Assembly: GCA_001825155.1 (NCBI GenBank)
Contig: MHVH01000004.1
Span: forward strand, 1 to 52,426
Origin: Candidatus Zambryskibacteria bacterium RIFCSPHIGHO2_01_FULL_46_25
GTDB lineage: Bacteria > Patescibacteriota > Minisyncoccia > Phycocordibacterales > Zambryskibacteraceae
Length of the DNA: 52,426 nucleotides
Direction of reading: 5' to 3'
In this document: piece by piece, positions 12,486-52,426 of the stretch
Numbering within the stretch: position 1 is the first letter of the stretch
Layout of the letters: every line of letters begins with the position of its first letter
Translations under genes and position numbers: made by a program
The notes under the pieces: model-generated
The model's input: only the letters and a program-made list of their open reading frames with translations
What the model was told of the DNA's origin: nothing
Database searches by the model: none

Positions 12486-13418
12486 ATGAAGTTATTAATA
12501 CTTACCCAAAAAGTGGCTAAGAATGACCCTATTTTAGGGTTTTTCGTAAATTGGATAAAAGCTTTTTCTGAGAAATTTGAAAAAATTACCGTCATCTGTT
12601 TAGAGGCCGGCGAATATGATTTACCAGGGAATGTGAAGGTCCTCTCCCTCGGTGAGGAGAAATTGAAAATTGAAAATTCTAAATTGAAAATTTTGGCGAA
12701 ACTTAAATATGCCTGGAATTTCTACAAATACATATTTAAGTTTCGCCATGATTACGACGCTGTCTTTGTTCATATGAATCAGGAGTATGTGATTCTGGGG
12801 TGGAAATTCTGGAAACTTTGGGGCAAAAAAATTTATTTATGGAGGAACCATGCTCACGGAGATTTTTTTACCAGACTCGCAATTTTGGTTTCGGATAAAG
12901 TTTTCTACACGTCTTCGCAATCTTTTACCGCGAAGTTTGGAAAGGCGGTAAGAATGCCCGCGGGCATTGATACAGACTTTTTCAAACCCGATCCGTCGGT
13001 CGCGAGAATTCCGAATTCGGTATTGTTTCTCGGTCGCATCGCACCGGTGAAAAAAGTTATGGAATTCGTCGAATGGGCTGAAACCAAAGGTTTCAGAAAA
13101 GTAACCATAGCCGGCCCTATCGGTGACAAAGAATATGGAGAGAAGGTTTTAAGCATGCTCACTCCAAACATGACATACGTCGGTCCGGTGACGCAGGCGG
13201 CGGCGCTGAAGCTCTATCAAACCCACGAAACTTATGTCAATATGACCCCTGCCGGCAGTTTTGACAAGACTATTTTAGAAGTCGCCGCCTGCGGGACGCG
13301 GGTTAAGGTTGAGAACAATGATTTGAAATTTATGGAAGGTAAAACGGACGCAGAACTAAGAGATTTTGTTGTGGAGAATCATAGTCTGAAAAAGCTTGCA
13401 GATAAACTTGCAGTATGA
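12486..13418 (+). CDS. Glycosyltransferase, GT-B/GT4-like.
   Basis: The locus context supports it, as does a C-terminal half with GRIAPVKK and a Rossmann-like pattern. It carries the 34-nt heptad element in-frame. Confidence 0.65.
   Translation: MKLLILTQKVAKNDPILGFFVNWIKAFSEKFEKITVICLEAGEYDLPGNVKVLSLGEEKLKIENSKLKILAKLKYAWNFYKYIFKFRHDYDAVFVHMNQEYVILGWKFWKLWGKKIYLWRNHAHGDFFTRLAILVSDKVFYTSSQSFTAKFGKAVRMPAGIDTDFFKPDPSVARIPNSVLFLGRIAPVKKVMEFVEWAETKGFRKVTIAGPIGDKEYGEKVLSMLTPNMTYVGPVTQAAALKLYQTHETYVNMTPAGSFDKTILEVAACGTRVKVENNDLKFMEGKTDAELRDFVVENHSLKKLADKLAV
12662..12694 (+). repeat. Heptad mini-element, ATTGAAA type, identical copy, translated as KIENSKLKIL.
   Basis: Identical to 10689-10721 and 40211-40243. 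Confidence 0.85.
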
Positions 13419-38159: not shown

Positions 38160-40211
38160 ATGATTAAAGATATTTTTAAAAAAACAATATTTGTAGGGCT
38201 GTTTCTGGTGCCCTTCATACCGTTTCTCGTCTTCTCGTCGTTTTTCTTCCCCTATATCACGACCAAGGCGTTTACTTGGAGAATCATTGTTGAGGTGGTA
38301 TTCGCCGCATGGCTTATCCTGGCAGTCTGGGAGCCGGAGTACAGGCCCAAAAAATCCATTCTTCTATACTCAGTGTTTACCTTTCTTGCAGTTATCGGGT
38401 TGGCGGACCTTTTCGGCGTTGATCGCTCCGCGAGCTTCTGGAGCAATTTCGAGCGTATGGAGGGATACATTTCGCTTCTTCATCTTGGCGCGTTCTTCCT
38501 CGTAATCAGTTCGGTCTTCAAAGAGGAACACTGGAAGAGCTGGTGGAATACTTCTCTTGTTGCCTCAGCCATTATGGGTGGCTACGCCTTTATGCAAATT
38601 ATCGGCGCGATGTCGCCTTCGCAGGGAGGGGTGCGCGTCGACGGTACCTTCGGCAACGCCATATATCTCGCGGTCTATATGCTCATACACATTTTCATCG
38701 CGCTCTTCTACATGCTCCGCGGCTGGAAGAATAGAAATCTCAGGTGGACATACGGTATTCTTGTCCTTTTTCAAATATTTATCATCTACTACACCGCGAC
38801 CAGAGGCGCAATTCTCGGCCTTTTGGGTGGACTCTTCATCGTGGCGCTTATAAATGTGATGAATAAGGAAGACACGGCGGTAAGGAAAGCAAGCATGGCC
38901 CTCATCGCGGCAATTGTTGTATTGATTGGAGGTTTTTTCCTCGCCAAGAACACGACCTTCGTATCCCAAAGTCCCGTTCTCTCTCGCTTCTCGACACTTA
39001 CCTTGGCGGAGATAAAGAATCAAGGCCGTTATTATGTTTGGCCGATTGCGCTTGAAGGTTTCAAGGAGAAGCCGATATTGGGCTGGGGGCAGGAGAACTT
39101 CGGTTACGTGTTCCAGAAGCACTACAAGCCGGAAATGTATCGCCTCGAGCCCTGGTTCGACCGCGCGCACAACATCTTTCTCGACTGGGCCGTTGTCGGC
39201 GGTATTCTTGGCCTTCTCTCGTATCTTGGGCTCTACGCGGCATTCTTATACATAGTGTGGCGCAGGGAAGATAATTTTACTTTTTCCGAGAAGTCGGTAC
39301 TTACCGGGCTTTTGGCCGCTTACTTCTTCCACAATTTTTTCGTCTTCGACCATCTTACAAGTTATGTGCTCTTCTTCTCCCTTCTTGCGTATCTTCAGTC
39401 TAGAGTCCCGGGACAGGTTGTATCGGCAAAAATTATTTCGGATTCGAAAATAAAAAAGATTGCTCTTCCGGCCGTGGCGCTTGTTCTGGCGTTCTCCTTG
39501 AGTTACATAAATTTCAAACCTCTGCTTGCCAATGTTTATCTGATAGAAGCGTTGAAGTCTATCCAGCTTAGCGATTCAGCGAAAGCGTCCGGATATTTCG
39601 AGAAAGCATACAAGACATCAAAGCTCGGGCGGCTTGAAGTCATGGAGCATATGGCAAACAACATCTCATCCATATTCTCAGGCAATCTTTCGAGTGAAGA
39701 AAAGGGCGCCTTCTACGCGTTCTCGAGCAATGCCGCGAAGGCGCAAGCCGAATTTTATACGAACTCAGCCCGTACCCAGCTTATGGCCGGCTCATTCTTC
39801 TCCGACATTGGTCTGCCTAACGAGGCGAGGCCGTACTTTGAGCGGGCAAGGGAGCTCTCTCCGGGCAAGCAACAGGCCTACTTCGAGCTCGGGGCCATAA
39901 GGATTAATTTGGGAGACCCGGTTGGGGCACAAGAGTTTTTCAAAGAGGCATATGAGCTGTCGCCGGATTACGTTGAAGCAAGGATAATTTACTTTATTGG
40001 GGCTATATATACTGGCGACAGGGGGCTTGAGAGGGAGCTTGCCGCTCAGATTCCTGAGAAACAGAGAATTTTTGATGACAGAGTCGTCTCGGCGCTATTT
40101 ACCAACAAAAGATTTTCCGAATTGATTGCGTTGTTCGAACGTAGGAAAGAGCTCGACCCGCAAAACTCCGCGACATATGACGATTACATCCGCCAAATCA
40201 GAAGTCAGTAA
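38160..40211 (+). CDS. O-antigen ligase / Wzy_C-family membrane protein with a C-terminal TPR domain.
   Basis: The protein is polytopic. The FDRAHNIFLDWAVVGGILG loop is typical of the Wzy_C family. The C-terminus has TPR-like repeats (YFERARELSPGKQQAYFELG, FFKEAYELSPDY). Confidence 0.8.
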   Translation: MIKDIFKKTIFVGLFLVPFIPFLVFSSFFFPYITTKAFTWRIIVEVVFAAWLILAVWEPEYRPKKSILLYSVFTFLAVIGLADLFGVDRSASFWSNFERMEGYISLLHLGAFFLVISSVFKEEHWKSWWNTSLVASAIMGGYAFMQIIGAMSPSQGGVRVDGTFGNAIYLAVYMLIHIFIALFYMLRGWKNRNLRWTYGILVLFQIFIIYYTATRGAILGLLGGLFIVALINVMNKEDTAVRKASMALIAAIVVLIGGFFLAKNTTFVSQSPVLSRFSTLTLAEIKNQGRYYVWPIALEGFKEKPILGWGQENFGYVFQKHYKPEMYRLEPWFDRAHNIFLDWAVVGGILGLLSYLGLYAAFLYIVWRREDNFTFSEKSVLTGLLAAYFFHNFFVFDHLTSYVLFFSLLAYLQSRVPGQVVSAKIISDSKIKKIALPAVALVLAFSLSYINFKPLLANVYLIEALKSIQLSDSAKASGYFEKAYKTSKLGRLEVMEHMANNISSIFSGNLSSEEKGAFYAFSSNAAKAQAEFYTNSARTQLMAGSFFSDIGLPNEARPYFERARELSPGKQQAYFELGAIRINLGDPVGAQEFFKEAYELSPDYVEARIIYFIGAIYTGDRGLERELAAQIPEKQRIFDDRVVSALFTNKRFSELIALFERRKELDPQNSATYDDYIRQIRSQ

Positions 40212-40243
40212 TTGAAAATTGAAAATTCTAAATTGAAAATTTT
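40211..40243 (+). repeat. Heptad mini-element, ATTGAAA type, identical copy. It is intergenic and abuts the TAA stop of the 38160 gene.
   Basis: Identical to 10689-10721 and 12662-12694. Confidence 0.85.
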
Positions 40244-40560: not shown

Positions 40561-43071
40561 ATGGCCATATTATCAGGCTTATTCGGCTCTCCGGAAGAAA
40601 AGAAGCTTCGCCAGTGGCGCCCGCTTGTTGAGCGCGTCAATTCGTTTGAGCCAGAGATGGAGAAGCTCTCAAACGAAGAATTAAAAGGGAAGACACTCGA
40701 ATTCAAAAACCGCCTTTCAAAAAGCGAATCGCTTGATGCGCTTCTGCCGGAAGCTTTTGCTGCCGTACGTGAAGCGGCCAAGCGCACATCAAGACTCAAG
40801 CAGAGGCATTTCGACGTGCAGATTCTCGGCGGTATCGCGATGTACAACGGCGGCATCGCTGAAATGAAGACTGGCGAGGGCAAGACACTCGTCGCGACTC
40901 TGCCGGCATATCTCGTGGCGCTCGAAGGCAAGGGTGTGCATGTGATTACCGTCAACGACTATCTCTCCCGCCGCGATGCCGTGTGGATGGGTGAGATTTA
41001 CGCGGCGCTTGGCCTCTCGGTTGGCGTGCTCAACGACCAGGCTTCGTATCTTTATGACGAATCGCACCAGACCCAGGAAGCCGACAAAGAAAGGGACGAA
41101 ACAGGCTCTTTCCGCGTCGTTTACGACTTTCTTCGCCCCGCGACAAAACAGGACGCCTACCGAGCGGACATTACTTATGGCACGAACAATCAATTTGGCT
41201 TTGATTATCTGAGGGATAACCTTGTTTATGATAGAGAGAATCTCGCTCAGCGCGATTATCACTACGCGATTGTCGACGAGATTGACTCGATTCTTATCGA
41301 CGAGGCCAGAACGCCGCTTATCATCTCCGGCAATACCGGCGCCGCCGGCGAACTTTATACAAGATTCGCGAAGATTGCCGGCTCCCTCGATGAAAACAAG
41401 GATTATGCTGTGGATGAGAAACTCAAGGCAATTTCACTTACGGACGATGGCATAAGCAAGGCGGAGAAAATGCTTGGCGTCGAAAATATTTATACCCAAG
41501 GAGGCATCAAGTATGTCCACCATCTCGAAACGGCGGTTAAGGCGAAAGCTCTTTACCACAAAGATAAGGAATATGTGGTAAAAGACGATGAAGTAGTAAT
41601 CGTTGATGCTTTTACCGGTCGTCTACAGCCCGGCAGGCGCTGGTCCGAAGGCCTTCATCAAGCCATAGAGGCCAAGGAAGGAGTAAGGATAAAGGAGGAG
41701 AGCCGCACTTACGCGTCAATCACATTCCAGAACTATTTCAGGATGTACAAGCGCCTATCCGGCATGACCGGTACGGCGCTTACTTCCAAAGAAGAATTTT
41801 ACAAAGTTTACGGGCTTGAAACTTATGTTGTGCCAACTCACAAGCCGGTTGCCAGGACCGACCATGGCGATCTTATTTTCCAAACACAGGCAGGCAAGAT
41901 GAAGGCGGTGGCGAAGAAGGCAAAGGAGTTGAGCCAAAAGGGTCAGCCATTGCTTATAGGCACGGTCTCAATCGAGCACAACGAGCTACTCTCCGAGTAT
42001 CTCAAGAGCGAGGGCATCAAGCATATCGTCTTAAACGCCAAGAACCACGAGCAGGATGCCCAGATTTACGCTCAAGCGGGCAAAAAGGGCTCCGTAACCG
42101 TGGCAACCAACATGGCTGGTCGAGGTGTTGACATCAAGCTCGGCGGCAATCCTTCCACGCCGGAACAATACGAAGAGGTCAAATCTCTTGGCGGACTTTT
42201 TGTCCTTGGTACCGAGCGTCACGACGCGCGCCGCATCGACAACCAGTTGCGCGGTCGTGCCGGACGCCAGGGTGATCCGGGAGCAACACAATTCTTTGTC
42301 TCGCTCGAAGATTCACTTATGCGAATCTTCGCCGTAGACGCCATCAAGAAGATGATGGGCCGTTTCAATATTCCCGAAGACGAGCCGATAGAGAACAAGC
42401 TCATTACCAACTCTCTCGAGAAGGCGCAGGAGAAGATTGAGGGCTTCAACTTCGACGCGAGGAAGCATGTGCTCGAGTTCGATGACGTACTCAACTTCCA
42501 ACGAAGCATCATCTACAAGAAGAGAAGAAAGGTGCTTGTTGGCAGCGAAGGTGATGTCAAAGATTATCTGGTGGAAGTCGGCAATAGTCTAGAATCTGAG
42601 CTTAAAGAAAAATTTGATTCCAAGCTCGCAAGCGAGAAGGCCTTCGAGCCCGTCGCGCTCGAAGCGTGGCGCAGGATTATTATCCAGACAATGGACCTCT
42701 TTTGGGTTGAACATCTGGAGATGATGGAATATCTGCGCGGCAGCGTGAATCTGCGAGCTTACGGCCAGCGCGATCCGCTTGTGGAATACAAGAAGGATGG
42801 TCTCCGATTCTTCCGAGAGATGGAGGCATCCATCGGTCGCCAAATTGCCGAGTTTGTTGTCACGCTTGACCTCGATGTGCTTACCGGTATCAAAGCTTCG
42901 CCCATAGAAGCCGAAGCCAAGGTTGTGGGGCATAGCGAGAGCAAGCCGATTTCCGCCAAGCCCGAAGCAGGGAGGAACGACCCATGTCCTTGCGGTAGCG
43001 GCAAGAAGTATAAGAAGTGTGGACTCCTCAACACTCCGGAACACCAACAAAGAATAGCTTCTATAAAATAA
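40561..43071 (+). CDS. secA: Preprotein translocase ATPase SecA.
   Basis: The sequence is SecA-like across its full length, including the GEGKT Walker A, TGMTGTA, and the C-terminal zinc motif CPCGSGKKYKKCG. Confidence 0.95.
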   Translation: MAILSGLFGSPEEKKLRQWRPLVERVNSFEPEMEKLSNEELKGKTLEFKNRLSKSESLDALLPEAFAAVREAAKRTSRLKQRHFDVQILGGIAMYNGGIAEMKTGEGKTLVATLPAYLVALEGKGVHVITVNDYLSRRDAVWMGEIYAALGLSVGVLNDQASYLYDESHQTQEADKERDETGSFRVVYDFLRPATKQDAYRADITYGTNNQFGFDYLRDNLVYDRENLAQRDYHYAIVDEIDSILIDEARTPLIISGNTGAAGELYTRFAKIAGSLDENKDYAVDEKLKAISLTDDGISKAEKMLGVENIYTQGGIKYVHHLETAVKAKALYHKDKEYVVKDDEVVIVDAFTGRLQPGRRWSEGLHQAIEAKEGVRIKEESRTYASITFQNYFRMYKRLSGMTGTALTSKEEFYKVYGLETYVVPTHKPVARTDHGDLIFQTQAGKMKAVAKKAKELSQKGQPLLIGTVSIEHNELLSEYLKSEGIKHIVLNAKNHEQDAQIYAQAGKKGSVTVATNMAGRGVDIKLGGNPSTPEQYEEVKSLGGLFVLGTERHDARRIDNQLRGRAGRQGDPGATQFFVSLEDSLMRIFAVDAIKKMMGRFNIPEDEPIENKLITNSLEKAQEKIEGFNFDARKHVLEFDDVLNFQRSIIYKKRRKVLVGSEGDVKDYLVEVGNSLESELKEKFDSKLASEKAFEPVALEAWRRIIIQTMDLFWVEHLEMMEYLRGSVNLRAYGQRDPLVEYKKDGLRFFREMEASIGRQIAEFVVTLDLDVLTGIKASPIEAEAKVVGHSESKPISAKPEAGRNDPCPCGSGKKYKKCGLLNTPEHQQRIASIK

Positions 43072-43072
43072 C

Positions 43073-43097
43073 CACTTGGAAACTCAGTTTCCAAGTG
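43073..43097. repeat. REP-like 25-nt palindrome, copy 1. It lies between the secA stop and the RAYT start.
   Basis: cacttggaaact c agtttccaagtg. Confidence 0.85.
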
Positions 43098-43110
43098 CTA
43101 TTATTTAAAC

Positions 43111-43776
43111 ATGAGAAAGGTTACATTTCTAGATGGAGAGTACTACCATATTTATAATCGGGGAGTTGATAAGCGTGTAATTTTTAATGATGATAAAGAC
43201 TTTGAGAGATTTCTGGTAAGTATGAATGATTTCAATTCGGTGGAGCCAATTGGGAGTATTTATGAGCACTCATTTCATAAAAAGTCTCGACTTGGAAACT
43301 CAGTTTCCAAGTCAGAGCCTAAATCAACAAAAAAGAAGATTAAGCCGCTGGTTGATTTTGTGGCTTATTGTCTTAATAAGAATCATTTCCATTTTATTGT
43401 TAAACAAGTATCAGATAGAGGTGTAGAGAAGCTAATGCATAGATTGGGACTTGGATTCACAAAGTATTTTAACTTAAGACATGAAAGAACCGGCTCATTG
43501 TTTCAAGGGCCATTTCAAGCTGTACATATTGATTCCAACGAGTATCTACTCTATGTTGGCGCATATGTGAATTTGAATAATTTAATTCACGGATATATAA
43601 ATTCTACAGAATTTAGATCAAGCTGGGGCGAATACACAGGCAGGGGATACGGAGGTTTTTGCAAGGTCGATATAATCTTGGGGCAATACAAAAATAGTGG
43701 CGAATACAAAAAGATTGCCGAACAGACTACGAGGGAGATTAAAAGAAAGCGTGATTTAGATCACTTGGAAACTTAG
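43111..43776 (+). CDS. IS200/IS605-type Y1 (HUH) transposase of the REP-associated (RAYT, COG1943-like) kind.
   Basis: HUH motif NHFHFIV. The segment GSLFQGPFQAVHIDSNEYLLYVGAYVNLN includes the catalytic-Tyr region. The gene is bracketed by the palindromes at 43073 and 43762. Confidence 0.8.
   Translation: MRKVTFLDGEYYHIYNRGVDKRVIFNDDKDFERFLVSMNDFNSVEPIGSIYEHSFHKKSRLGNSVSKSEPKSTKKKIKPLVDFVAYCLNKNHFHFIVKQVSDRGVEKLMHRLGLGFTKYFNLRHERTGSLFQGPFQAVHIDSNEYLLYVGAYVNLNNLIHGYINSTEFRSSWGEYTGRGYGGFCKVDIILGQYKNSGEYKKIAEQTTREIKRKRDLDHLET
43290..43312. repeat. REP-like palindrome, copy 2. It lies inside the RAYT ORF and is translated as LGNSVSK.
   Basis: acttggaaact c agtttccaagt. Confidence 0.8.
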
Positions 43777-43786
43777 TTTCCAAGTG
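43762..43786. repeat. REP-like palindrome, copy 3. Its central T creates the TAG stop of the RAYT gene.
   Basis: cacttggaaact t agtttccaagtg. The stop codon is at 43774-43776. Confidence 0.85.
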
Positions 43787-43826
43787 GGGGATTTTTCAAG
43801 TGTTTTTCTGGTATTATTTAAATTCC

Positions 43827-44399
43827 ATGCAAGAAGCGCTCAATATATTACGTCTTATAAACGATGTTGTGCTCGAACCCAATATCACGAGCGCTATTAT
43901 TATTCTTATCTTCGCCTTCGCGAACGAGCTTGTCGCCGTGGTGCCTTACGCGCTCATTCTCTCGGGTCAGCTTATTTTCCTCGACGATACGCTCTCTCTC
44001 GCTCTTTTGGCGAAGCTTCTCGTCTTCGTAGCGGTGCCTGTCGGTCTCGGTAGCGCCATTGGCACGATTCCGTTCTATCTTCTTGCTTACTTTGGAGGCA
44101 AGCCGGTTGTAAACAAATTCCACAAATATTTGCGTTTCTCGTGGCATGATGTGGAGAAGGTAAGCGCTCGCTTCACAGGCGTTTGGTATGACGAGATAAT
44201 CTTCTGGGTTCTCAGGATGGTGCCGGTTGTGCCTTCTCTTCCGCTGTCTCTCACCGCGGGTTTTTTCCGCATGCGTTTCTGGCCTTACTTCGTCTTGACC
44301 GCGGTTGGGTTAACGGTAAGAATGGTGCTTACGCTTCTGCTCGTCGGCTTCGGTGTAGGCGGACTGTCCGGGCTTCTATTTTTGATTTATAATAGTTAA
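43827..44399 (+). CDS. DedA/SNARE-associated (VTT) family membrane protein.
   Basis: A polytopic protein with the YFGGKPVVNKF segment typical of DedA. The start is set at the ATG at 43827, because the track ORF begins at a GTG just downstream of the REP. Confidence 0.7.
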   Translation: MQEALNILRLINDVVLEPNITSAIIILIFAFANELVAVVPYALILSGQLIFLDDTLSLALLAKLLVFVAVPVGLGSAIGTIPFYLLAYFGGKPVVNKFHKYLRFSWHDVEKVSARFTGVWYDEIIFWVLRMVPVVPSLPLSLTAGFFRMRFWPYFVLTAVGLTVRMVLTLLLVGFGVGGLSGLLFLIYNS

Positions 44400-44403
44400 C
44401 AAT

Positions 44404-44778
44404 ATGAAAAAAATTATTTGGGCGGTCATAGTCTTGGTGGTATTGGCGGGGCTTGTGTGGCTTGTGAAAACTCCCGGCAAGTCGGGCGAGCTCGATGCCT
44501 TCGCCCAATGTATCTCGGAGAGCGGGGCCAAATATTACGGGGCATTCTGGTGCCCCAACTGCAAAAATCAAGAAGCTCGCTTCGGCCGTTCGGCAAAACT
44601 CTTGCCGCGCATCGAGTGCTCAACGCCGGACGGCAAAGATCAGTTACCAGTTTGCGCGGAGGCCAAAATAGAAGGTTATCCCACTTGGGATTTCGCGGAC
44701 GGCAGGAGAGAAATAGGCAATCTCTCGCTTGAGAAACTTGCCGAGTTCACGGGCTGCCCGCTCACTCAACCAGAATAA
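44404..44778 (+). CDS. Membrane-anchored thioredoxin-like protein of the type normally fused to VKOR.
   Basis: An N-terminal TM helix. It also has YYGAFWCPNCKNQEARFG, a second Cys pair IECSTPDG...PVCAEAKIEGYPTW, and a cis-Pro-like YPTW. Confidence 0.7.
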   Translation: MKKIIWAVIVLVVLAGLVWLVKTPGKSGELDAFAQCISESGAKYYGAFWCPNCKNQEARFGRSAKLLPRIECSTPDGKDQLPVCAEAKIEGYPTWDFADGRREIGNLSLEKLAEFTGCPLTQPE

Positions 44779-44781
44779 GTC

Positions 44782-45321
44782 ATGGTAGAACTTGTAAAAT
44801 CTTTTTTGCCTTATGCCGTGCTCGTCTCGCACGTTCTACTGGTGGCGCTCTTTCTCGCGATAATTTTCCGTAAATCGTGGGGGAGAAAGGCGTCCGCCTT
44901 TCTCAACCAGCGCGCTTTGACATTCGGTTTAATAATTTCCCTCGGCGCCATTGTCGGTAGCCTCTTCTATTCCGAAATTGTGGGATATGAGGCTTGTGTG
45001 CTTTGCTGGTGGCAGAGAGTTTTTCTCTATCCGCAACTTGTTCTGTTCACAATAGCTCTGTGGAAGAATGACCGGTCCGTCTTCGGCTACTCGTTTGTCC
45101 TCTCGTCTCTTGCGGGTATCGTTGCTTTATACCAGGCCTATGTTAATTGGGGCGGAGCTTCTCTCTTGCCATGCACGGCGGCCGAAGGCGCCTGCGCGAA
45201 AATTTTTGTCATGGAGTTCGGCTATATCACTATCCCTGTTATGTCGCTTACAGTTGTTTTCTATCTCCTGCTTCTCGCCTGGATAAACCGCTTGTATCGA
45301 AATGAAAATCGCAACGCATAA
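44782..45321 (+). CDS. DsbB/BdbC-family disulfide bond formation protein.
   Basis: CVLCWWQRVFLYP (first Cys pair), PCTAAEGAC (second pair) and four TM segments. Confidence 0.8.
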   Translation: MVELVKSFLPYAVLVSHVLLVALFLAIIFRKSWGRKASAFLNQRALTFGLIISLGAIVGSLFYSEIVGYEACVLCWWQRVFLYPQLVLFTIALWKNDRSVFGYSFVLSSLAGIVALYQAYVNWGGASLLPCTAAEGACAKIFVMEFGYITIPVMSLTVVFYLLLLAWINRLYRNENRNA

Positions 45322-46168
45322 CGGACACTTTCATACCGACGAACTCATGGCTGTCGCGGCGTTGCTTATAAAATTTCCCGATGCGGAAGTGGTGCGGACG
45401 CGAGACGAAGAGATTATCAAGCAATCTGATATAGCGGTCGATGTCGGGCAGATTTGTGACCCCGTTTCTATGCGCTTCGACCACCATCAGCCGGGCGGTG
45501 CCGGGAAAAGGGAGAATGGCATCCCGTATGCCTCTTTCGGCTTAGTGTGGAAAGAATATGGGGCAGAACTTGCCGGAGGGAAGGAAGAAGCGTTAGTAGT
45601 TGACGAGAAACTTGTGGCTGGTATCGACGCGGCAGACAACGGCGTATCGGTTTGCAATCATAAATTCGAAGACCTAGAAGAATACAGCATCGGAAATTTC
45701 TTCGAATCTTTTGCGGGCAGGGCGAAATCAATGGACGAGCTTGATCGCGGCTTCTTCGAATCGTTGCTTATAGCATGTGATCTCTTGGCAAGAGAGATTG
45801 CTATAGCGCGGGAACAGGTGGCTGATTGGCGCAAGGTCCGCGAGATATACGAGCAGTCGCCGGATAAGCGTGTAATCATTTTGCCGGGAAATTTGTCATG
45901 GAAGCGAGCGCTCATACCAACTGATGCCATCTACGCCATCTATTTTAGAACTGATGGCAAATGGGGCCTCCAAGTCGTTCCTCAGGCACGCGGTTCATAT
46001 GAAGCCAAGAGAAAATTACCCCAAACTTGGGCGGGACTTGTCGATGCAGAGCTTGCTAAGGTGACAGGTGTTTCTGATGCCATCTTTTGCCACAGTGCCC
46101 GATTTCTCGCCACGACTTTGAGCAAAGAAGGCGCTATCAAGCTTGCGGAAATCGCTCTAAAGTCCTAA
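45302..46168 (+). CDS. MYG1/UPF0160 family metal-dependent hydrolase.
   Basis: N-terminal IATHNGHFHTDELMAVAAL and the later DHHQ motif. Confidence 0.85.
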   Translation: MKIATHNGHFHTDELMAVAALLIKFPDAEVVRTRDEEIIKQSDIAVDVGQICDPVSMRFDHHQPGGAGKRENGIPYASFGLVWKEYGAELAGGKEEALVVDEKLVAGIDAADNGVSVCNHKFEDLEEYSIGNFFESFAGRAKSMDELDRGFFESLLIACDLLAREIAIAREQVADWRKVREIYEQSPDKRVIILPGNLSWKRALIPTDAIYAIYFRTDGKWGLQVVPQARGSYEAKRKLPQTWAGLVDAELAKVTGVSDAIFCHSARFLATTLSKEGAIKLAEIALKS

Positions 46169-46184
46169 TCTACGAATTATCCAA

Positions 46185-46568
46185 ATGCTACAAATAGCTA
46201 CAAATAAAGAAAAGGATTCAAAATTACTATACCCTAAATTATCTTACGAGATAGTCGGAATGTGTTTTGAGGTTCATAACGAGTTAGGTCAATTTGCTAG
46301 AGAAAAGCAGTATGCCAATCTCGTAGAACAGAAGCTTAAGAATAAAGGTATAAAATATGAAAGGGAGTGCCCACTCGGAGATTCTGGCAATATTGTTGAT
46401 TTTGTGATAGAAAACAAGATCGTGCTTGAGTTAAAGACTGTTAGAGTGTTAGGTCGCACCCATTATCGGCAATTACAGAATTACCTTCAACAGACTAAAG
46501 TGGAGCTTGGTTTACTTCTGAACTTTAGTGACAAGCTCTTAAGCCCAAAAAGAGTGCTGAAAGTATGA
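46185..46568 (+). CDS. GxxExxY protein, PD-(D/E)XK-like.
   Basis: The segment SYEIVGMCFEVHNELG...EKQYANLVEQKLKNKGIKYERE is family-typical, and so is the size of 127 aa. Confidence 0.85.
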   Translation: MLQIATNKEKDSKLLYPKLSYEIVGMCFEVHNELGQFAREKQYANLVEQKLKNKGIKYERECPLGDSGNIVDFVIENKIVLELKTVRVLGRTHYRQLQNYLQQTKVELGLLLNFSDKLLSPKRVLKV

Positions 46569-46618
46569 AATTATTTGTAGATATTAGCAGCCAGTAAAAC
46601 CCATAAATTATTAGTAGC

Positions 46619-47590
46619 ATGTTTATAGACGAAATCACTCTCCATCTCAAGGCGGGTCGCGGTGGCGACGGCGTGGTGCGTTGGCGGCACGAGAAAGGCA
46701 AAGACAAGGGCGGTCCATCCGGAGGCAATGGCGGCAAGGGTGGTGATGTGTATGCTATTACCGTAAGAGATATTGGTATTCTGGCGAGCTACAGGAATGT
46801 AAAAGAATTCGAAGCGGGCAGAGGGAATGATGGTTTCAAGGATTTGAAACAAGGCGCCGAGGGCAAGGATGTGGAAATAAAATTTCCTGTCGGTGCTCGC
46901 GTTACGAATCGCACGACAGGCCATTTCATCGAGCTTCTTAAGGATGGAGAAAAAGTTTTGCTTCTCAAGGGCGGCAGGGGAGGTATGGGCAATGAACATT
47001 TTAAAGGCTCTACTAACGTGAGGCCCAGGCAGTCTACGGATGGAGAAATTGGTGAAGAGGCAGATTTCTACACCGAGCTCCTTCTGATGGTCGATTTGGG
47101 CCTTATTGGTCTTCCAAATGCTGGCAAATCAAGCCTGCTTAACGCCCTGACGAATGCTCAGGCCAAGGTGGGCAATTTCCCCTTCACAACCCTTAACCCT
47201 GGTCTAGGAAGCTTCTACGGCCTTGTTCTGGCCGATATCCCAGGGCTCATAGAGGGGGCGGCGGATGGTAAAGGTCTTGGTCATAAGTTCCTGCGGCATA
47301 TCGAGCGCACCAAGGCGCTTCTTCACTGCGTTTCTTCAGAATCAGAAGACCCGCTCGAAGCGTACCGGATTGTGAGAAACGAACTCGGGCTCTATAATAA
47401 AGCCATCACGGGTAAGCCGGAGATAGTCGTGCTGACGAAGACTGATACTGTTTCAGAAGCAGAAGTGAAAGAAAAGATTAAAGCGCTTAAATCAGTTTCC
47501 AAGGATATTGTCCCGATTTCAATTTTGGATGATGAGCTAATTAAAAATTTAAAATTTAGAATTTCCAATTTAAAATTTAATGAAAATTGA
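46619..47590 (+). CDS. obg: GTPase Obg.
   Basis: The N-terminal Obg fold begins MFIDEITLHLKAGRGGDG. The G1 motif is GLPNAGKSS and the G3 motif is DIPGLIEGA. The last ~15 aa are encoded by a heptad mini-element. Confidence 0.95.
   Translation: MFIDEITLHLKAGRGGDGVVRWRHEKGKDKGGPSGGNGGKGGDVYAITVRDIGILASYRNVKEFEAGRGNDGFKDLKQGAEGKDVEIKFPVGARVTNRTTGHFIELLKDGEKVLLLKGGRGGMGNEHFKGSTNVRPRQSTDGEIGEEADFYTELLLMVDLGLIGLPNAGKSSLLNALTNAQAKVGNFPFTTLNPGLGSFYGLVLADIPGLIEGAADGKGLGHKFLRHIERTKALLHCVSSESEDPLEAYRIVRNELGLYNKAITGKPEIVVLTKTDTVSEAEVKEKIKALKSVSKDIVPISILDDELIKNLKFRISNLKFNEN
47492..47504. repeat. Half-REP relic inside obg.
   Basis: tcagtttccaagg matches the right arm of the 25-nt palindrome over 12 nt. 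Confidence 0.4.
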
Positions 47591-47594
47591 AAAT
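47546..47594 (+). repeat. Heptad mini-element, AATTTAA / TGAAAAT type, spanning the obg stop and the gatB start.
   Basis: aatttaa aatttag aatttcc aatttaa aatttaa tgaaaat tgaaaat. The gatB ATG is at 47580 and the obg TGA at 47588. Confidence 0.65.
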
Positions 47595-49022
47595 TATCGA
47601 CTTACCGTAGGATTGGAGATTCACGCGGAATTGAAGACCAGAACCAAGATGTTCTGTCAGTCGAAAAACGATACTGATGAAACGCGCCCCAATGTCAATA
47701 CTTGCCCTGTCTGCATGGGTTATCCCGGTACTCTGCCCGTTATCAATAAAGAAGCTGTAAGGTCGGTTCTGCGCCTTGGAGTAGCCGTAGGCGGCAAAAT
47801 TGCCGACTATACCGAGTTCGACCGCAAAAATTACTTCTACCCCGATATTCCCAAAGGTTACCAGATAAGCCAATATAAGCACCCGCTCGTAAGCGGGGGC
47901 GAGCTTGCCGGAGTAAAACTCACCAGAATCCACTTGGAAGAAGACACAGCGAGATCCTTGCACGAACTTGGAAACTCAGTTTCCAAGTGTCTTTTGGAAA
48001 CTGAGTTTCCAAGTGGGGAGTCTTATCTCGATTTCAACCGAGCAGGGGTTCCACTTATGGAAATGGTAACCGAGCCCGTGATACATACCGCAGAAGAAGC
48101 TGTGAAGTTCGCAAAAGAGCTCAAACTTCTTCTGCAGTATCTGGGCATCTCGCTGGCCAATATGGAGAAGGGCGAGATGAGGGTCGAAGCTAACGTAAGC
48201 GTTAGCTTCGACAAATCACAAAACCCAAACTCCAAATCTCAAACAAATCCTAAACTAGGCACAAAGGTAGAAATAAAAAACCTCAATTCATTCAAGGCCC
48301 TAAGCCAGGCCATAGAATTCGAACACCAGAGGCAGGTAGAGATACTGGAGAGAGGGGAGAGTGTAATCCAAGAAACTCGCGGCTGGGATGAGAACAAATC
48401 CGAGACATTTTCGCAAAGGGCGAAGGAAGAGTCTCATGATTACAGGTATTTCCCCGACCCGGACCTTCCAAAGATTTTCTTAAGCGAAATGCCCGACTTC
48501 GCTCCGACGGAGCTTCGTCGGGCGCTGCCCGAGTTGCCATGGGACAAGAGAGAACGTCTTTTGAAGTTGGGCATCTCATCCGAGCACGCGGAAATTTATG
48601 TTACCCAGCCCGAATGGGGGGAGTATTTTGAAGAGGTATTCAACCACTTGGAAACTGAGTTTCCAAGTGGTGCTCAGCTGGCTTCCAACTACATAACTTC
48701 GGAATTAAAAAAACCGGTGGACGCTGGCGCGTTTGCCGACACCATGCGCATGATTGTTTCCGGGAAAATATCTTCCAGAGGAGCGAAAGAAATTTTGAAA
48801 ACGTTGCAGGAGAAAGGCGGCGAGCCAAGGGCAATCGCCGAGGAGAAAAATTTGATGCAAGAGAGCGACAGAGAGATTTTGAGAAAAATTGTTGAGGAGG
48901 TTTTGGCAGAAAACAAAAAAGCCCCGGTCCAGTTTCTGGTGGGGCAGGCGATGAAGAAGTCGGAAGGCAGGGCGAATCCGGTTATCCTTCAGGAACTATT
49001 CGTCGAGATGCTGAATCGTTAG
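47580..49022 (+). CDS. gatB: Asp/Glu-tRNA amidotransferase subunit B. It contains three REP insertions and one heptad-type insertion, all in-frame.
   Basis: GLEIHAELKTRTKMFC, CPVCMGYPGTLP, LDFNRAGVPLMEMVTEP, EIKNLNSF and a C-terminal YqeY-like tail. Confidence 0.95.
   Translation: MKIENYRLTVGLEIHAELKTRTKMFCQSKNDTDETRPNVNTCPVCMGYPGTLPVINKEAVRSVLRLGVAVGGKIADYTEFDRKNYFYPDIPKGYQISQYKHPLVSGGELAGVKLTRIHLEEDTARSLHELGNSVSKCLLETEFPSGESYLDFNRAGVPLMEMVTEPVIHTAEEAVKFAKELKLLLQYLGISLANMEKGEMRVEANVSVSFDKSQNPNSKSQTNPKLGTKVEIKNLNSFKALSQAIEFEHQRQVEILERGESVIQETRGWDENKSETFSQRAKEESHDYRYFPDPDLPKIFLSEMPDFAPTELRRALPELPWDKRERLLKLGISSEHAEIYVTQPEWGEYFEEVFNHLETEFPSGAQLASNYITSELKKPVDAGAFADTMRMIVSGKISSRGAKEILKTLQEKGGEPRAIAEEKNLMQESDREILRKIVEEVLAENKKAPVQFLVGQAMKKSEGRANPVILQELFVEMLNR
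47966..47989. repeat. REP-like palindrome, copy 4 (centre C), in gatB, translated as LGNSVSK.
   Basis: acttggaaact c agtttccaagtg. Confidence 0.85.
47994..48015. repeat. REP-like palindrome, copy 5 (centre G, opposite orientation). It forms a head-to-head doublet with copy 4 and is translated as LETEFPSG.
   Basis: ttggaaact g agtttccaagtg. Confidence 0.85.
48213..48254 (+). repeat. Heptad-periodic A3-N-CC-type tract in gatB, translated as KSQNPNSKSQTNPK.
   Basis: aaatcac aaaaccc aaactcc aaatctc aaacaaa tcctaaa. Confidence 0.5.
48645..48669. repeat. REP-like palindrome, copy 6 (centre G), in gatB, translated as HLETEFPSG.
   Basis: cacttggaaact g agtttccaagtg. Confidence 0.85.
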
Positions 49023-49235
49023 TTTCTTGATTTGTTTCTTGGCGTTCGATTTGTCCGTGCCGCTTTCAATATCCTCGATAATGTGTTCCAGCGAGGAGAG
49101 CTTATAGACGCGATAGTTGTTCATGGGGTGTCTCTGGGCTCTGAACTTGCCGGATTTATCCCAGTTCCGAAGTGTGAGAGGGGAAACTCCCAGGATCTCA
49201 GCCGCTTCCTTGATGGAGAAATAGATATCTTTCAT
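48996..49235 (-). CDS. Small MerR/excisionase-type HTH DNA-binding protein.
   Basis: FSIKEAAEILGVSPLTLRNWDKSGKF..YRVY pattern. Confidence 0.75.
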   Translation of the reverse strand: MKDIYFSIKEAAEILGVSPLTLRNWDKSGKFRAQRHPMNNYRVYKLSSLEHIIEDIESGTDKSNAKKQIKKLTIQHLDE

Positions 49236-49298
49236 GGTTCGACTCGAAGGGTCATAAACATTACTAATTTAGCATATGTGTTAATATATACAAGTATC

Positions 49299-49817
49299 AT
49301 GAAGCGTAAAATTTTATCAGTATTCATAGTGTCTTTTGTAGCTGCTGTTCTCATTAGGGCTTTTGTTATCGAAGGATTCTTCGTCGTGGGGGATTCCATG
49401 GAGCCGGTCATACATTCCGGAGATTACGTGTTCATCAACAAACTCGCTTTCGCAAAGAGGGAACCTCGACGCGAAGAAATAGTGATAGCCTCTTCTCGAG
49501 GAGGAGAGAGACTCATTAAGAGAATTATAGGATTGCCCGGTGAGCGCGTATCAATAGAAGATGGCAAGATAGTGATTAAGTCCGGTCGCTTGGATGAAGG
49601 AGATGTGTTGGAAGAAATCTATTTAAACAATGGGCAAACTTCGTCTACCACCGGCATTTCTCTCATAAAACTCGATCCGGGAGAATATTTCGCCCTGGGG
49701 GACAATCGGAACGTAAGCATTGATTCTCGGGAGCTTGGTCCGATAGATATATGGGATATAAAGGGAAGTGTCATAGGGTCTTTTAATTTAACGCATTTAA
49801 AGTATAAAGGTTTTTAA
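49299..49817 (+). CDS. lepB: Signal peptidase I.
   Basis: An N-terminal TM helix, the catalytic Ser box GDSMEP, the Lys box IKRIIGLPGE, and GDNRNVSIDSR. The start is set at the ATG at 49299. Confidence 0.9.
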   Translation: MKRKILSVFIVSFVAAVLIRAFVIEGFFVVGDSMEPVIHSGDYVFINKLAFAKREPRREEIVIASSRGGERLIKRIIGLPGERVSIEDGKIVIKSGRLDEGDVLEEIYLNNGQTSSTTGISLIKLDPGEYFALGDNRNVSIDSRELGPIDIWDIKGSVIGSFNLTHLKYKGF

Positions 49818-49867: not shown

Positions 49868-49972
49868 AAATCCTAAATCCTAAGCACTAAATCCTAAATA
49901 ATCTTTAGTTTTCAATTTAATATTTGTAATTTGCAATTTGTTTAGGATTTAGGATTTTTTTATTTAGGATTT
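49868..49972. repeat. Composite intergenic element. AATCCTA-type heptads form an imperfect inverted repeat around a core of ATTTACA/ATTGAAA-type heptads in reverse orientation.
   Basis: The left arm is aaatcctaaatcctaagcactaaatcctaaata (49868-49900). The right arm is tttaggatttaggatttttttatttaggattt (49941-49972). The core is ..ttttcaatttaatatttgtaatttgcaatttg. Confidence 0.65.
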
Positions 49973-50028: not shown

Positions 50029-52426
50029 ATGTATAATAAATACAACGTGAAAGAACAACCGATACAGGATATCGGCACCCCAAAAAACCAGCAAGATGCT
50101 TCCGAAGACGCTGTCAGGTGGCTTTCGATGTCTGAAGCCGCACTCCTCACTCCTTACAGCGCGGAATATCTTTCACTTCTGGCGCGTAAAAAAAAGATTG
50201 CTTCGAAGAAAATCGGCAATGCTTGGTATACGACGAAGGAAGTTCTTGATGCTTACATGAAGCGGCAGATGGCGCGAACTGAGTTGGCAAATGGTGGCGC
50301 GCAATCGGTAAGTGAGATGGTGAAGTCCGCTCTCGAGCCTTGGCATACCTACGGGCAAGATATAAGAAAATATCGTCTTGAGCAGGAGCTTGCGACCGGT
50401 ATGTCGCCGCAAGTTGAGCACGTGGAGCGCGCGCTTGAAAGAGTGTTGGACAAAAAAATTTCCAATTTACAATTTCCAATTTACAATGAAGATTCCAAAT
50501 CAAAATCGGAAAGTAAAATTCGCAAACATTTTAAAATCGCGACTTCGAGCAAGGTGCTCGTCGCGATAACGCTCGCGGCAATTGTGCTCTTCTCGGTCTT
50601 GCCGGTGCCGTTCGTCTTCAGCTTTGTATCGCGCTCCGTTGATTACGTCAAAGAGGCAATCAATGACGCCAATACGGTCATGGGTTTCCGACCCGGCACT
50701 CACGCCAATGAAATTCTACTCCTCGACAAAGAGGGCAATGTTTCGATTATGGGCCATATTGAAACGGAGGGTCAGCTACGGTCATATGTTGCCGATGGCA
50801 TCGCGCCCCTGGTTGTCGACTCTACAACAACGGTAAAAAATCTCTCCGCGGATAGCGTGGACAACATTTCCGCGGAAGAATTCACGCTCGCCTTCGTGAC
50901 CAAGAACGGCAATATGACCACGGAGAACGTTTACTTCGAAGGCAATGTCGAGGTCGGCGAAACTCTAAAGGTCAGAGGGGCAACAGAACTTCTCTCGACG
51001 CTTGAGGTAAGTGGCAAGCTAAAAGCCTTTGGCGAAGCCGAATTCCGGCAAGCGATTGAGGTTCTTGGCCCGGCATACTTCGAAAGCTTGGTGACTCTCG
51101 CGGGCGACGCAAAAATAAAAGGCAACCTTGATGTGAGCAAAAATATTACCGTTCGAGGGAGCGTTGAGTCGAACAGCGCAATTATCGGCAAGAGCGGTTC
51201 CTTCGGCTCTCTCGGCGTTTCCGGCAGTTTCTCGGCCGGCGGCAAGATTACTCTCGGCAACGAGAAAGATACGCTCACTATCAACTCCAAGAACGTTACG
51301 ATTGACAGCTCCGGCAACGCGAGCTTCGACGGCGGTGTGAGCGCCACGAGCCTCTCCGCAACGGACTTGATTGTAACGAACGCCACGACCACAAACTTCT
51401 TCACGGACGTTTTTCGCGCCGCCCTTACCACCATCACCTCCCTTATTGCCGATGATATTACCACCGGAGCGCTTACCGCGACTAATTCCACTTCCACCAA
51501 CGCCACTTCAACCAATTTTTACGCGGAGGATGCCACCATAGACAGTCTTACGACCGCCGAGATAACTATTACCGACCTCCTCTTCACCCGCGCCACAGGC
51601 ACTTCCGCTACGACGACGAATCTGTTCTCGTCGCAATTTACAAGTAACAATTTACAATTTACAAACGGACTCGGGACGTATGCAACTATAACCAACGCAA
51701 CGACCACGAACTTCTTCTCCACTATTGGCCGATTCACGGATTTGTTCTCGGATAACTTCGATGCCAGCAGTTTTACCTTCGTCAACGCCACTGGCACGAA
51801 TGCCACCACAACCAGCTCCTTCGCCGAGACCGCATCTTCAACGAATCTCTTCTCCACCAACTTCAACCTAGGCACAGGTTCTCTCGGTTACGCGACAATA
51901 TCCGACCTCATCTTCACCCGCGCCACCGGCACATCCGCTACCACCACGAGCTTCTTCTCGACTACTGCCTCTTCCACCAATCTCTTCTCCTCACTTCTTT
52001 CTGTCGGCGGCACTCAAGGTTTGAATGTGATTGCCGGCGGGAATGTTGGCATCGGGACGACTGCTCCCACAGGCGCTTTGGATGTATACCCGTCCGGCGG
52101 CGGTTCTGCGACTTTAGGCAATAGTTTATCAGTCTGGGCATTAGGGGGCGGTGCTAATGGCATATATGCCCAACTTGGATTGGGATACAAGGGTACGAAC
52201 GGTGTCCCGCCTGGAGTAATTGCCTGGCAGGCCAATACCAACAATGCTTATCAAGGCGACTTAGTTTTCGCTCTGAGAAATACAGATAGTTATACAGCGG
52301 CTCCCGTCCAAATGATGACCATTAAACCTTCCGGCAACGTCGGCATCGGGACGACGGGGCCGGTATCGGCTTTGCAAGTTAATTCAGAAATATCTGTCGG
52401 AGCAACTGATAATGACCGCGGAATTA
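50029..52426 (+). CDS. Large surface protein, partial because it runs off the window end. Its parts are an N-terminal HTH-like domain, one TM helix, and a Thr/Asn/Ser-rich repeat region with tail-fibre-like GNVGIGTT motifs.
   Basis: I translated this frame by hand from the ATG at 50029 and found no stop up to 52426. It is absent from the ORF track because it has no stop. The N-terminus is WLSMSEAALLTPYSAEYLSLLARKKKI..WYTTKEVL. The TM helix is VLVAITLAAIVLFSVLPVPFVF. The repeats are ATGTSATTTNLFS / ATTTNFFS. The motifs GNVGIGTTAPTGALDV and GNVGIGTTGPVSALQV are also present. Confidence 0.8.
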   Translation, partial: MYNKYNVKEQPIQDIGTPKNQQDASEDAVRWLSMSEAALLTPYSAEYLSLLARKKKIASKKIGNAWYTTKEVLDAYMKRQMARTELANGGAQSVSEMVKSALEPWHTYGQDIRKYRLEQELATGMSPQVEHVERALERVLDKKISNLQFPIYNEDSKSKSESKIRKHFKIATSSKVLVAITLAAIVLFSVLPVPFVFSFVSRSVDYVKEAINDANTVMGFRPGTHANEILLLDKEGNVSIMGHIETEGQLRSYVADGIAPLVVDSTTTVKNLSADSVDNISAEEFTLAFVTKNGNMTTENVYFEGNVEVGETLKVRGATELLSTLEVSGKLKAFGEAEFRQAIEVLGPAYFESLVTLAGDAKIKGNLDVSKNITVRGSVESNSAIIGKSGSFGSLGVSGSFSAGGKITLGNEKDTLTINSKNVTIDSSGNASFDGGVSATSLSATDLIVTNATTTNFFTDVFRAALTTITSLIADDITTGALTATNSTSTNATSTNFYAEDATIDSLTTAEITITDLLFTRATGTSATTTNLFSSQFTSNNLQFTNGLGTYATITNATTTNFFSTIGRFTDLFSDNFDASSFTFVNATGTNATTTSSFAETASSTNLFSTNFNLGTGSLGYATISDLIFTRATGTSATTTSFFSTTASSTNLFSSLLSVGGTQGLNVIAGGNVGIGTTAPTGALDVYPSGGGSATLGNSLSVWALGGGANGIYAQLGLGYKGTNGVPPGVIAWQANTNNAYQGDLVFALRNTDSYTAAPVQMMTIKPSGNVGIGTTGPVSALQVNSEISVGATDNDRGI
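50458..50487 (+). repeat. Heptad mini-element, ATTTCCA/ATTTACA type, translated as ISNLQFPIYN.
   Basis: atttcca atttaca atttcca atttaca at. Confidence 0.6.
51635..51662 (+). repeat. Heptad mini-element, AATTTAC type, translated as QFTSNNLQFT.
   Basis: aatttac aagtaac aatttac aatttac. Confidence 0.6.

Follow-up and report, generated by a model that had tools for sequence, protein, structure and literature searches.

In-frame REP-type palindromes in gatB of a Candidatus Zambryskibacteria genome and their association with a RAYT-like transposase gene

Through analysis of a 52,426-nt stretch of contig MHVH01000004.1 from Candidatus Zambryskibacteria bacterium RIFCSPHIGHO2_01_FULL_46_25 (hereafter the window), three copies of a short palindrome have been identified in frame within gatB, and the same palindrome recurs before, inside and at the end of a gene for a RAYT-like HUH/Tyr transposase (RAYT, repetitive extragenic palindrome (REP)-associated tyrosine transposase). 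The palindromes are probably REP-type elements of a REP/RAYT system, translated in frame as part of a GatB that stays functional. Two of the three gatB copies form a doublet that has been added to a loop of the protein, and the third replaces an earlier hairpin at an already occupied site.

The palindrome in gatB and around the RAYT-like gene

Searching the window with CACTTGGAAACTSAGTTTCCAAGTG, with up to 3 mismatches allowed, revealed six palindrome copies in the 52 kb, against 0.00 expected by chance (Table 1). Four of the six are wholly coding, and a further one covers a stop codon. A preliminary description of this DNA, made from the letters alone, had noted a doublet and a singleton in gatB, and the mismatch-tolerant search recovers all three copies, in the form ACTTGGAAACT-N-AGTTTCCAAGT. 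The unit had been given as 25 nt; its palindromic nature stands, and its size has to be reduced to a 23-nt hairpin core, ACTTGG-nnn-CT-N-AG-nnn-CCAAGT, with the outermost C/G present in only about half of the copies. The gatB copies have characteristic features; (i) copy 1 is an inverted repeat with 11-nt arms that are 100% complementary; (ii) the doublet has opposite central bases and 21-nt arms (47966-47986 and 47994-48014), 100% complementary and 7 nt apart, as the proposed geometry of a REPIN (REP doublet forming a hairpin) implies; (iii) the stem of copy 3, flanks included, reaches 14 bp (48643-48671). Doublets with a 19-nt offset are present in other genomes. RNA folding predicts -37.5 kcal/mol (z -6.6) for the doublet and -19.8 kcal/mol for the singleton.

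The reading frame of gatB is open through all three copies, and the peptides announced in the preliminary description, LGNSVSK and LETEFPSG, are indeed found in the translation. The doublet encodes LGNSVSK-CL-LETEFPSG and copy 3 is read as NHLETEFPSG; the encoded insert-junction peptides in GatB are SLHELGNSVSK, CLLETEFPSGESYLDFNR and EEVFNHLETEFPSGAQLASNYITSELK.

The host gene itself is well defined. Both Pfam domains, GatB_N and GatB_Yqey, are matched, the NCBIfam GatB equivalog scores 496 bits (cut-off 338), solved GatB chains in PDB match at E 3e-98, and the protein keeps the residue at every column that is invariant over 34 aligned GatBs. At least 24 contigs encode exactly this 480-aa protein. 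In six independent contigs, which come from different samples and assemblers, a groundwater series among them, gatB shows 0-1 differences from the window DNA, and each of the six keeps all three palindrome copies. The hairpin units in gatB measure 23, 29 and 49 nt, so that their clean removal from the RNA would shift the frame; we infer from the sequence that gatB makes sense only with the hairpins translated. One related contig, L114, 99.96% identical otherwise, departs from the window upstream of 47614 (L114:1-194), exactly at an AT-rich repeat at the start of gatB, where its GatB N-terminus reads MYRPTIG...; it keeps all three copies, and the divergence reflects strain variation or else an assembly join made at that repeat. 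At its other end gatB overlaps a convergent MerR/HTH_17 open reading frame (ORF), and the overlap is called likewise in L115, L121 and L122.

The RAYT-like gene is located between secA and a VTT-domain gene, with the palindrome upstream of it, inside it and over its stop codon, which is the TAG at the centre of the 3' copy. More than 6,500 homologues were found, and the 120 listed with an organism name are all from Patescibacteria; most homologues have a precomputed PF01797 match and some are named RayT by their source. The residues H92-F-H94 and Y152 (motif YVNLN) are invariant in 39 homologues. In the AlphaFold2 model (predicted local distance difference test, pLDDT, 82) H92 and H94 lie on a strand and Y152 on a helix, as expected for this fold. 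The top Foldseek match in PDB is 4ER8_A, the E. coli RAYT with its REP hairpin (E 4.6e-6, TM score 0.64 on the target), followed by the TnpA proteins of IS608, ISDra2 and IS200, whereas a profile search of PDB sequences with the RAYT-like family returned nothing useful. As modelled, the gene product is a RAYT-like fold with the catalytic motifs, and the assignment of the palindromes to RAYT-linked REPs in the preliminary description is upheld by this match together with the palindrome copies flanking the gene.

A RAYT-like gene flanked by its own variant of the hairpin is also present in L116, L118, L119 and L120. One inner-stem variant surrounds each gene: AAA/TTT in the window and L116, AGA/TCT in L118, CGG/CCG in L119 and AAG/CTT in L120. 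In the window (43071-43111 and 43776-43800) and in L116 the gene with its flanking hairpins takes up the space that separates secA from the VTT-domain gene; in L122 the two neighbours are 10 nt apart (L122:5525-5535), with no RAYT-like gene between them. The in-frame copy in the window gene, site A, corresponds to a disordered loop of the model (residues 58-73, pLDDT <50). Among the 120 listed homologues, an LGNxVSK-type motif is found at site A in 68 and at a second position, site B, in 93. The same inner residue pair occurs at both sites in 48 of the 53 homologues having both (N/V, S/A, D/V, G/A, N/I or S/T), and the codons of these pairs can be mutual reverse complements; H/M, another pair with this capacity, is found at single sites. 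Site B of the window gene holds a different small palindrome (Table 1).

Table 1. Positions of the palindrome copies, their host genes and other repeats in the window, with the third gatB site of two relatives
Feature	Position	Strand	Details
RAYT-like HUH/Tyr transposase gene	43111-43776	+	221 aa; 4 kb upstream of gatB
Copy before RAYT-like gene	43073-43097	+	0 mismatches, central C; gap between secA stop and RAYT start
Copy in RAYT-like gene, site A	43289-43313	+	2 mismatches, central C, in frame, read LGNSVSK
RAYT-like gene, site B	43595-43618	+	different small palindrome, TAAATTC taca GAATTTA
Copy at RAYT-like gene 3' end	43762-43786	+	1 mismatch, central T
gatB, host gene	47580-49022	+	uninterrupted single ORF, 480 aa, intact
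REPIN-like doublet in gatB	47966-48014	+	head-to-head, opposite central bases, 49 nt
Copy 1 of doublet	core 47966-47988, match 47965-47989	+	1 mismatch, central C, read LGNSVSK
Copy 2 of doublet	47994-48014, match 47991-48015	+	2 mismatches, left arm truncated, central G, read LETEFPS
Copy 3, singleton	core 48646-48668, match 48645-48669	+	0 mismatches, central G, in gatB
Third gatB site, window			ACTTGG-AAACTGAGTTT-CCAAGT
Third gatB site, L115			ACTTGG-CGGTGAAACCG-CCAAGT
Third gatB site, L122			ACTTGG-CGGTCCGACCG-CCAAGT
15-nt inverted repeat in gatB	48085-48099 and 48126-48140		93% complementary, 26 nt apart
Perfect palindrome in gatB	48183-48212		13-nt arms; GTCGAAGCTAACG taag CGTTAGCTTCGAC
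MerR/HTH_17 ORF	48996-49235	-	79 aa; overlaps gatB 3' end by 27 nt
AT-rich 7-nt-period repeat	10325-10350, 10687-10719, 12660-12692, 40209-40241, 47538-47578, 49900-49939, 50457-50482

Two of the copies at the RAYT-like gene resemble regulatory signals. The copy at 43073 matches terminator-like and promoter -35-like patterns, and that at 43762 is terminator-like with a T-run. Within 43076-43104 the hairpin gives a -35-like TTGGAA, followed 17 nt later by TG-TATTAT (a consensus match only), and the upstream hairpin could supply the promoter of the RAYT-like gene. No Rfam family was matched over 42800-49300 at E up to 1.

Occupied sites, constraint and spread

The doublet was compared with the 120 closest GatBs, 63-75% identical, from Ca. 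Zambryskibacteria and relatives. It is present in three of them, namely the window genome (counted once via its near-identical cluster-mate P0001), P0002 and P0113, and is absent from the other 117, most of which read H-D-K-G-E-E-S at this point. The net gain is 13-14 residues (GatB ~129-145). The extra residues that the preliminary description had placed between two conserved blocks are thus a true insertion. The same description expected the inserted residues in exposed loops. The doublet lies in a loop: modelled GatB residues 129-143 have pLDDT <50 and stand between strand 112-121 and strand 158-164, solved GatB structures vary in length at this loop, and other orthologues carry unrelated repeat-derived inserts in it. 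An insertion in a tolerant loop is supported by the model and these comparisons. The singleton forms, in the model, the end of helix 344-357 plus the loop after it.

The third copy is present as described, but its reading as an insertion has to be revised, since little length has been added relative to orthologues: the window GatB is only two residues longer there than insert-free relatives. Several orthologues read LGGxTAK at this position, encoded by another 23-nt palindrome with the same outer stem, and the GatB of P0081 reads LGNGVSK. As the palindromes of orthologues at this position differ from that of the window but keep its outer stem, the site has been occupied by a hairpin for long, with its sequence exchanged. 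Judged from these sequences, the singleton is a replacement at an already occupied site rather than a fresh insertion.

The hairpin is conserved at the level of nucleotides. In a covariation analysis of 22 copies, 94% of the cells pair, and none of 500 shuffles reaches the observed score; six of the 12 stem pairs change at both of their positions, and one-sided changes are absent. For a test of synonymous sites, gatB orthologues were found by protein search and not by the repeat. Pairwise, the codons for conserved residues of the doublet are identical in 13/13, 11/11 and 12/12 cases, against 35-46% in the rest of gatB (Fisher p 2e-6 to 1e-4), and the codons directly outside the doublet have diverged. 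A nucleotide-level constraint acting on the hairpin is therefore supported by the sequence comparisons.

A scan of species-representative genomes for the 19-mer gave at least 113 blocks among the matches listed, most of them from many Patescibacteria lineages, and a single Patescibacteria assembly holds at least 13 separate 8-kb blocks; most copies listed have a central T or A. Of the 112 copies listed, 62 lie in ORFs of at least 150 aa. Strong in-frame Pfam domains mark 19 of 20 tested ORFs as real housekeeping genes. The hosts include PGK, MnmA, DnaX, phosphoglucomutase, TsaD, TopA (topoisomerase I), DinB, SMC, ArgRS, PheT and TGT, and in several of them the position of the copy is shared between species. 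A hairpin family that is mainly intragenic across Patescibacteria appears to be new. The reading frames used by 61 copies are LETxFPS (29), LGNxVSK (23) and the hydrophobic TWKLSFQV (9). Relative to an expected 1:1:2 the last is under-used (9/61 versus half, p 1.5e-7), which points to a filter on the reading frame of inserts at the protein level. Copies outside long ORFs tend toward the tips of longer, copy-specific stems, some with T-runs. In L003, L053, L084, L085, L091, L109 and others, mutually reverse-complementary flanks specific to the copy lengthen the stem by 5-16 bp, and it looks as if the element had settled there within the loop of a hairpin or terminator that was already present.

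Other repeats have been identified in and near gatB. A second, AT-rich family with a 7-nt period, AAATTGAAAATTGAAAATTCTAAATTGAAAATT, has 20 matches in comparison with 0.13 expected; three of its copies, each of about 34 nt, are nearly identical. Where it spans 47538-47600, the family supplies the last residues of Obg (LKFRISNLKFNEN) and the first ones of GatB (MKIEN). N-termini of the MKIENSKIKN type, and NFQFPISNFQ or ENSKLKIEN loop inserts, are seen in many GatB orthologues and apparently derive from the same AT-rich family. The perfect palindrome at 48183-48212 codes for the conserved VEANVSVS and for FD, the two residues with which a lineage-specific low-complexity insert begins; the palindrome may have arisen by inverted copying from the adjacent sequence. 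This insert, DKSQNPNSKSQTNPK (~48205-48250, residues ~210-225), has a core (215-223) with pLDDT <50. The same loop reads RSDLK..SKVGP in many orthologues, and in L115 it holds a doublet of a small palindrome, AAGGTC[C/G]GACCTT, with opposite central bases; other GC-rich inserts are found elsewhere in GatB orthologues.

Explanations for the in-frame palindromes

The explanation that we consider probable starts from a RAYT-like protein that would make or renew hairpin copies on single-stranded DNA. In such very compact genomes most of the surviving copies would be those that landed in frame and free of stops in surface loops where the protein tolerates them. The gatB doublet would add a disordered loop of about 14 residues and the singleton would re-code a helix end and a loop, with both inserts translated and GatB remaining functional. 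The occupied sites would be old, and the hairpin in them either kept perfect or overwritten by the current variant of the genome. The keeper at each site would act on nucleotides, by RAYT recognition or re-copying.

Several points weigh against this explanation. The window RAYT-like protein stays below the family cut-offs, with 21.1 bits for Pfam Y1_Tnp (cut-off 23) and 23 bits for NCBIfam REP_Tyr_transpos (cut-off 80). The hairpin is devoid of the GTAG/CGTC tag of classical REPs; no such tag was found beside it, and among ~110 oriented copies no conservation extends more than one base past the 23-mer. Comparison of filled and empty gatB alleles leaves the insertion boundaries ambiguous, with a net gain of 39-42 nt versus a doublet of 42-49 nt and flanks that differ by small indels. 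The doublet bearers are not mutual nearest relatives in a neighbour-joining GatB tree. Binding, cutting or copying of the hairpin by the RAYT-like protein is putative and is suggested by the shared stem variants, and we infer likewise mobilisation by that protein, translation of the inserts, a near-neutral effect of these on GatB and the way in which the hairpins are maintained. Finally, the frozen synonymous sites could also mean that the hairpin has a host function.

The last point leads to an alternative that we regard as possible although clearly less probable: the in-gene hairpins would be kept because, as DNA or RNA, they serve the host or the RAYT partnership, and the peptide would be a by-product. 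Possible roles are RAYT binding or autoregulation, mRNA pausing or stability, and replication or supercoiling sites. This alternative overlaps the explanation by RAYT-driven copying and tolerated translation, from which it differs only by a selected function. It draws on the synonymous sites frozen in the doublet next to diverged codons, on the strictly compensatory stem changes, on the two fixed REP-like sites in most RAYT-like genes with their matching inner pairs, on the sites shared across species in several host genes, and on the position of copies outside long ORFs at the tips of longer stems, some with T-runs. On the other hand, the hosts are unrelated genes with no common theme, most GatB orthologues live without the doublet, no Rfam family covers the region searched, and repeated overwriting by an active RAYT gives the same frozen-site signal with no host benefit. 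The preliminary description had offered two ways of accounting for the inserts, a selection for frame-preserving insertion in loops and an active role for the hairpins. Both find support, a protein-level filter on the frame in the under-use of TWKLSFQV, and a nucleotide-level constraint on the hairpin in the frozen sites and the covariation.

A bolder generalisation can be put forward only tentatively, as we think it rather less than an even chance. The REP/RAYT system of Patescibacteria would work mainly in coding sequence, and hairpins at fixed loops would be repeatedly overwritten by the variant matching the RAYT of the genome. If this is true, the fixed sites are loops of essential proteins and two positions in the RAYT-like gene itself. 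It would amount to a concerted, site-specific replacement of hairpins inside genes, and to a selected function for the hairpins or the RAYT (e.g. autoregulation via its own in-frame hairpins) beyond the tolerance of selfish DNA.

The history of the doublet may also be read in two ways. The favoured one is a single old insertion, kept perfect and lost in many lineages. The three bearers share the right junction CCAAGT + GRR GAG TC and the flank ESYLDFN, which occurs in 0/117 of the other GatBs; this flank has diverged at synonymous sites like the rest of gatB, and is therefore old. That the doublet arose recently and three times over, each time independently and at one nucleotide position, through a target preference of the transposase, seems unlikely against this shared junction and flank. 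Such a history would, however, account for the bearers standing in separate parts of the tree, each beside insert-free relatives (the gatB of L115, with the doublet, is 79% identical to the insert-free L122 and 72% to the window), for the copy-to-copy junction inside the doublet, which differs among the three lineages, and for the use of the same loop by unrelated repeat inserts in other orthologues. The weight of the tree is reduced, as it is star-like, with no support values and very long terminal branches.

Two further alternatives are very weak. An assembly chimera, a decayed gatB copy or removal of the hairpins from the RNA before translation was rejected, and is highly improbable, given the near-identical gatB DNA in six independent assemblies, the intact ORF with every invariant column kept and a score above the equivalog cut-off, and unit lengths that would break the frame. 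The chance that the palindromes are ancestral GatB sequence or fortuitous is next to nil: the third site has indeed long held a palindrome (LGGxTAK) in several orthologues, but the doublet, for which this origin was rejected by the orthologue alignment, is missing from 117 of the 120 closest GatBs, no copies are expected by chance, and the same 23-mer recurs both in and around the RAYT-like gene and, in other genomes, within dozens of unrelated genes.

Comparison with known REP, RPE and IS200/IS605 systems

The elements described here share several features with the REP/REPIN-RAYT systems of Proteobacteria (E. coli TnpA-REP, 4ER8; Pseudomonas REPINs); (i) a short palindrome present as singletons and inverted doublets; (ii) a gene of HUH/Tyr transposase type flanked by its cognate repeat, with a predicted RAYT-like fold; (iii) covariation of repeat sequence and transposase gene between genomes; (iv) a position of the gene, with secA on one side and a VTT-domain gene on the other, that two distant relatives (window and L116) have in common. 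However, there are also major differences. The Patescibacteria hairpin is an untagged, near-perfect 23-nt palindrome whose orientation is visible only in the central base, about 55% of the copies among the matches listed lie inside coding sequence, and two in-frame copies are found in the RAYT-like gene itself in most family members. Pseudomonas REPINs typically number hundreds per genome, in contrast to the at least 13 blocks from one assembly seen here, and REPINs are described as almost exclusively extragenic (10.1101/2021.07.10.451892 for both).

Intragenic REPs have nevertheless been described before. According to the available part of Di Nocera et al. 2013 (PMC3733652), GTAG/CGTC REPs and REP dimers occur in ORFs of known proteins in several species, with hosts that include tRNA synthetases and replication/repair genes; the dimers encode 20-30 residues, and the intragenic REPs were judged tolerated decorations. 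Those REPs differ from the present hairpin in carrying the GTAG/CGTC tags, and in the same part of the article Patescibacteria are not among the organisms studied and no mention was found of frozen synonymous sites, of site overwriting or of REPs inside the transposase gene. The statement of the preliminary description that in-frame insertion was unknown for RAYT-linked REPs thus does not stand, whereas the lack of reports that it mentions for CPR-like genomes agrees with the literature as far as our search covered it: no relevant paper on REP/RAYT or in-frame palindromes was found for the Candidate Phyla Radiation (CPR), Patescibacteria or Parcubacteria, and a survey of HUH endonucleases leaves these three groups unmentioned.

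Similar in habit are the Rickettsia palindromic elements (RPEs), in-frame palindromes in functional genes that are thought to be translated at the protein surface without loss of function. We know of no cognate transposase tied to the long RPEs; here a RAYT-like gene lies 4 kb from the gatB copies. As far as the accounts in PMC3184786 and PMC3733652 convey it, Ogata et al. 2000 described RPEs as palindromes that lie within essential genes of a reduced genome and keep the reading frame. RPEs measure ~105-146 bp (PMC3184786), unlike the 23-nt unit and 49-nt doublet (7-17 residues) found here, and the short RPE-4 and RPE-6 are classed with the GTAG/CGTC REPs in the available part of PMC3733652.

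As for the transposase, the modelled protein shares a single-domain HUH/Tyr fold with IS200/IS605 TnpA (IS608, ISDra2). IS200/IS605 transposases recognise single-stranded hairpins and move by seamless excision and insertion with no target duplication; movement of this type would fit a clean in-frame gain and loss. In contrast to IS200/IS605 elements, the gene described here seems not to move with its ends as a unit, the repeats are far shorter than IS ends and tnpB is absent.

Both by definition and in models, REPs and REPINs count as extragenic, and their long persistence has been argued to need the sparing of genes. Intragenic REPs as a kind are already known, through the Rickettsia RPEs and the report of 2013, and what appears new is the mainly in-gene habit, the overwriting of occupied sites, the frozen synonymous sites and the in-frame copies in the RAYT-like gene. 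The departure from the known systems thus lies in RAYT-linked hairpins of ultra-small genomes that stand mostly inside essential genes and would be read there as protein, that are perfect at the nucleotide level while nearby codons drift, and that are built into their own transposase-like gene. If confirmed, such hairpins would map, in a natural way, the loops of core proteins that tolerate insertions, would offer a clean covariation system in which RAYT-hairpin specificity can be tested, and would call for caution in annotation and phylogeny, as lineage-specific 'inserts' in Patescibacteria proteins may often be translated repeats.

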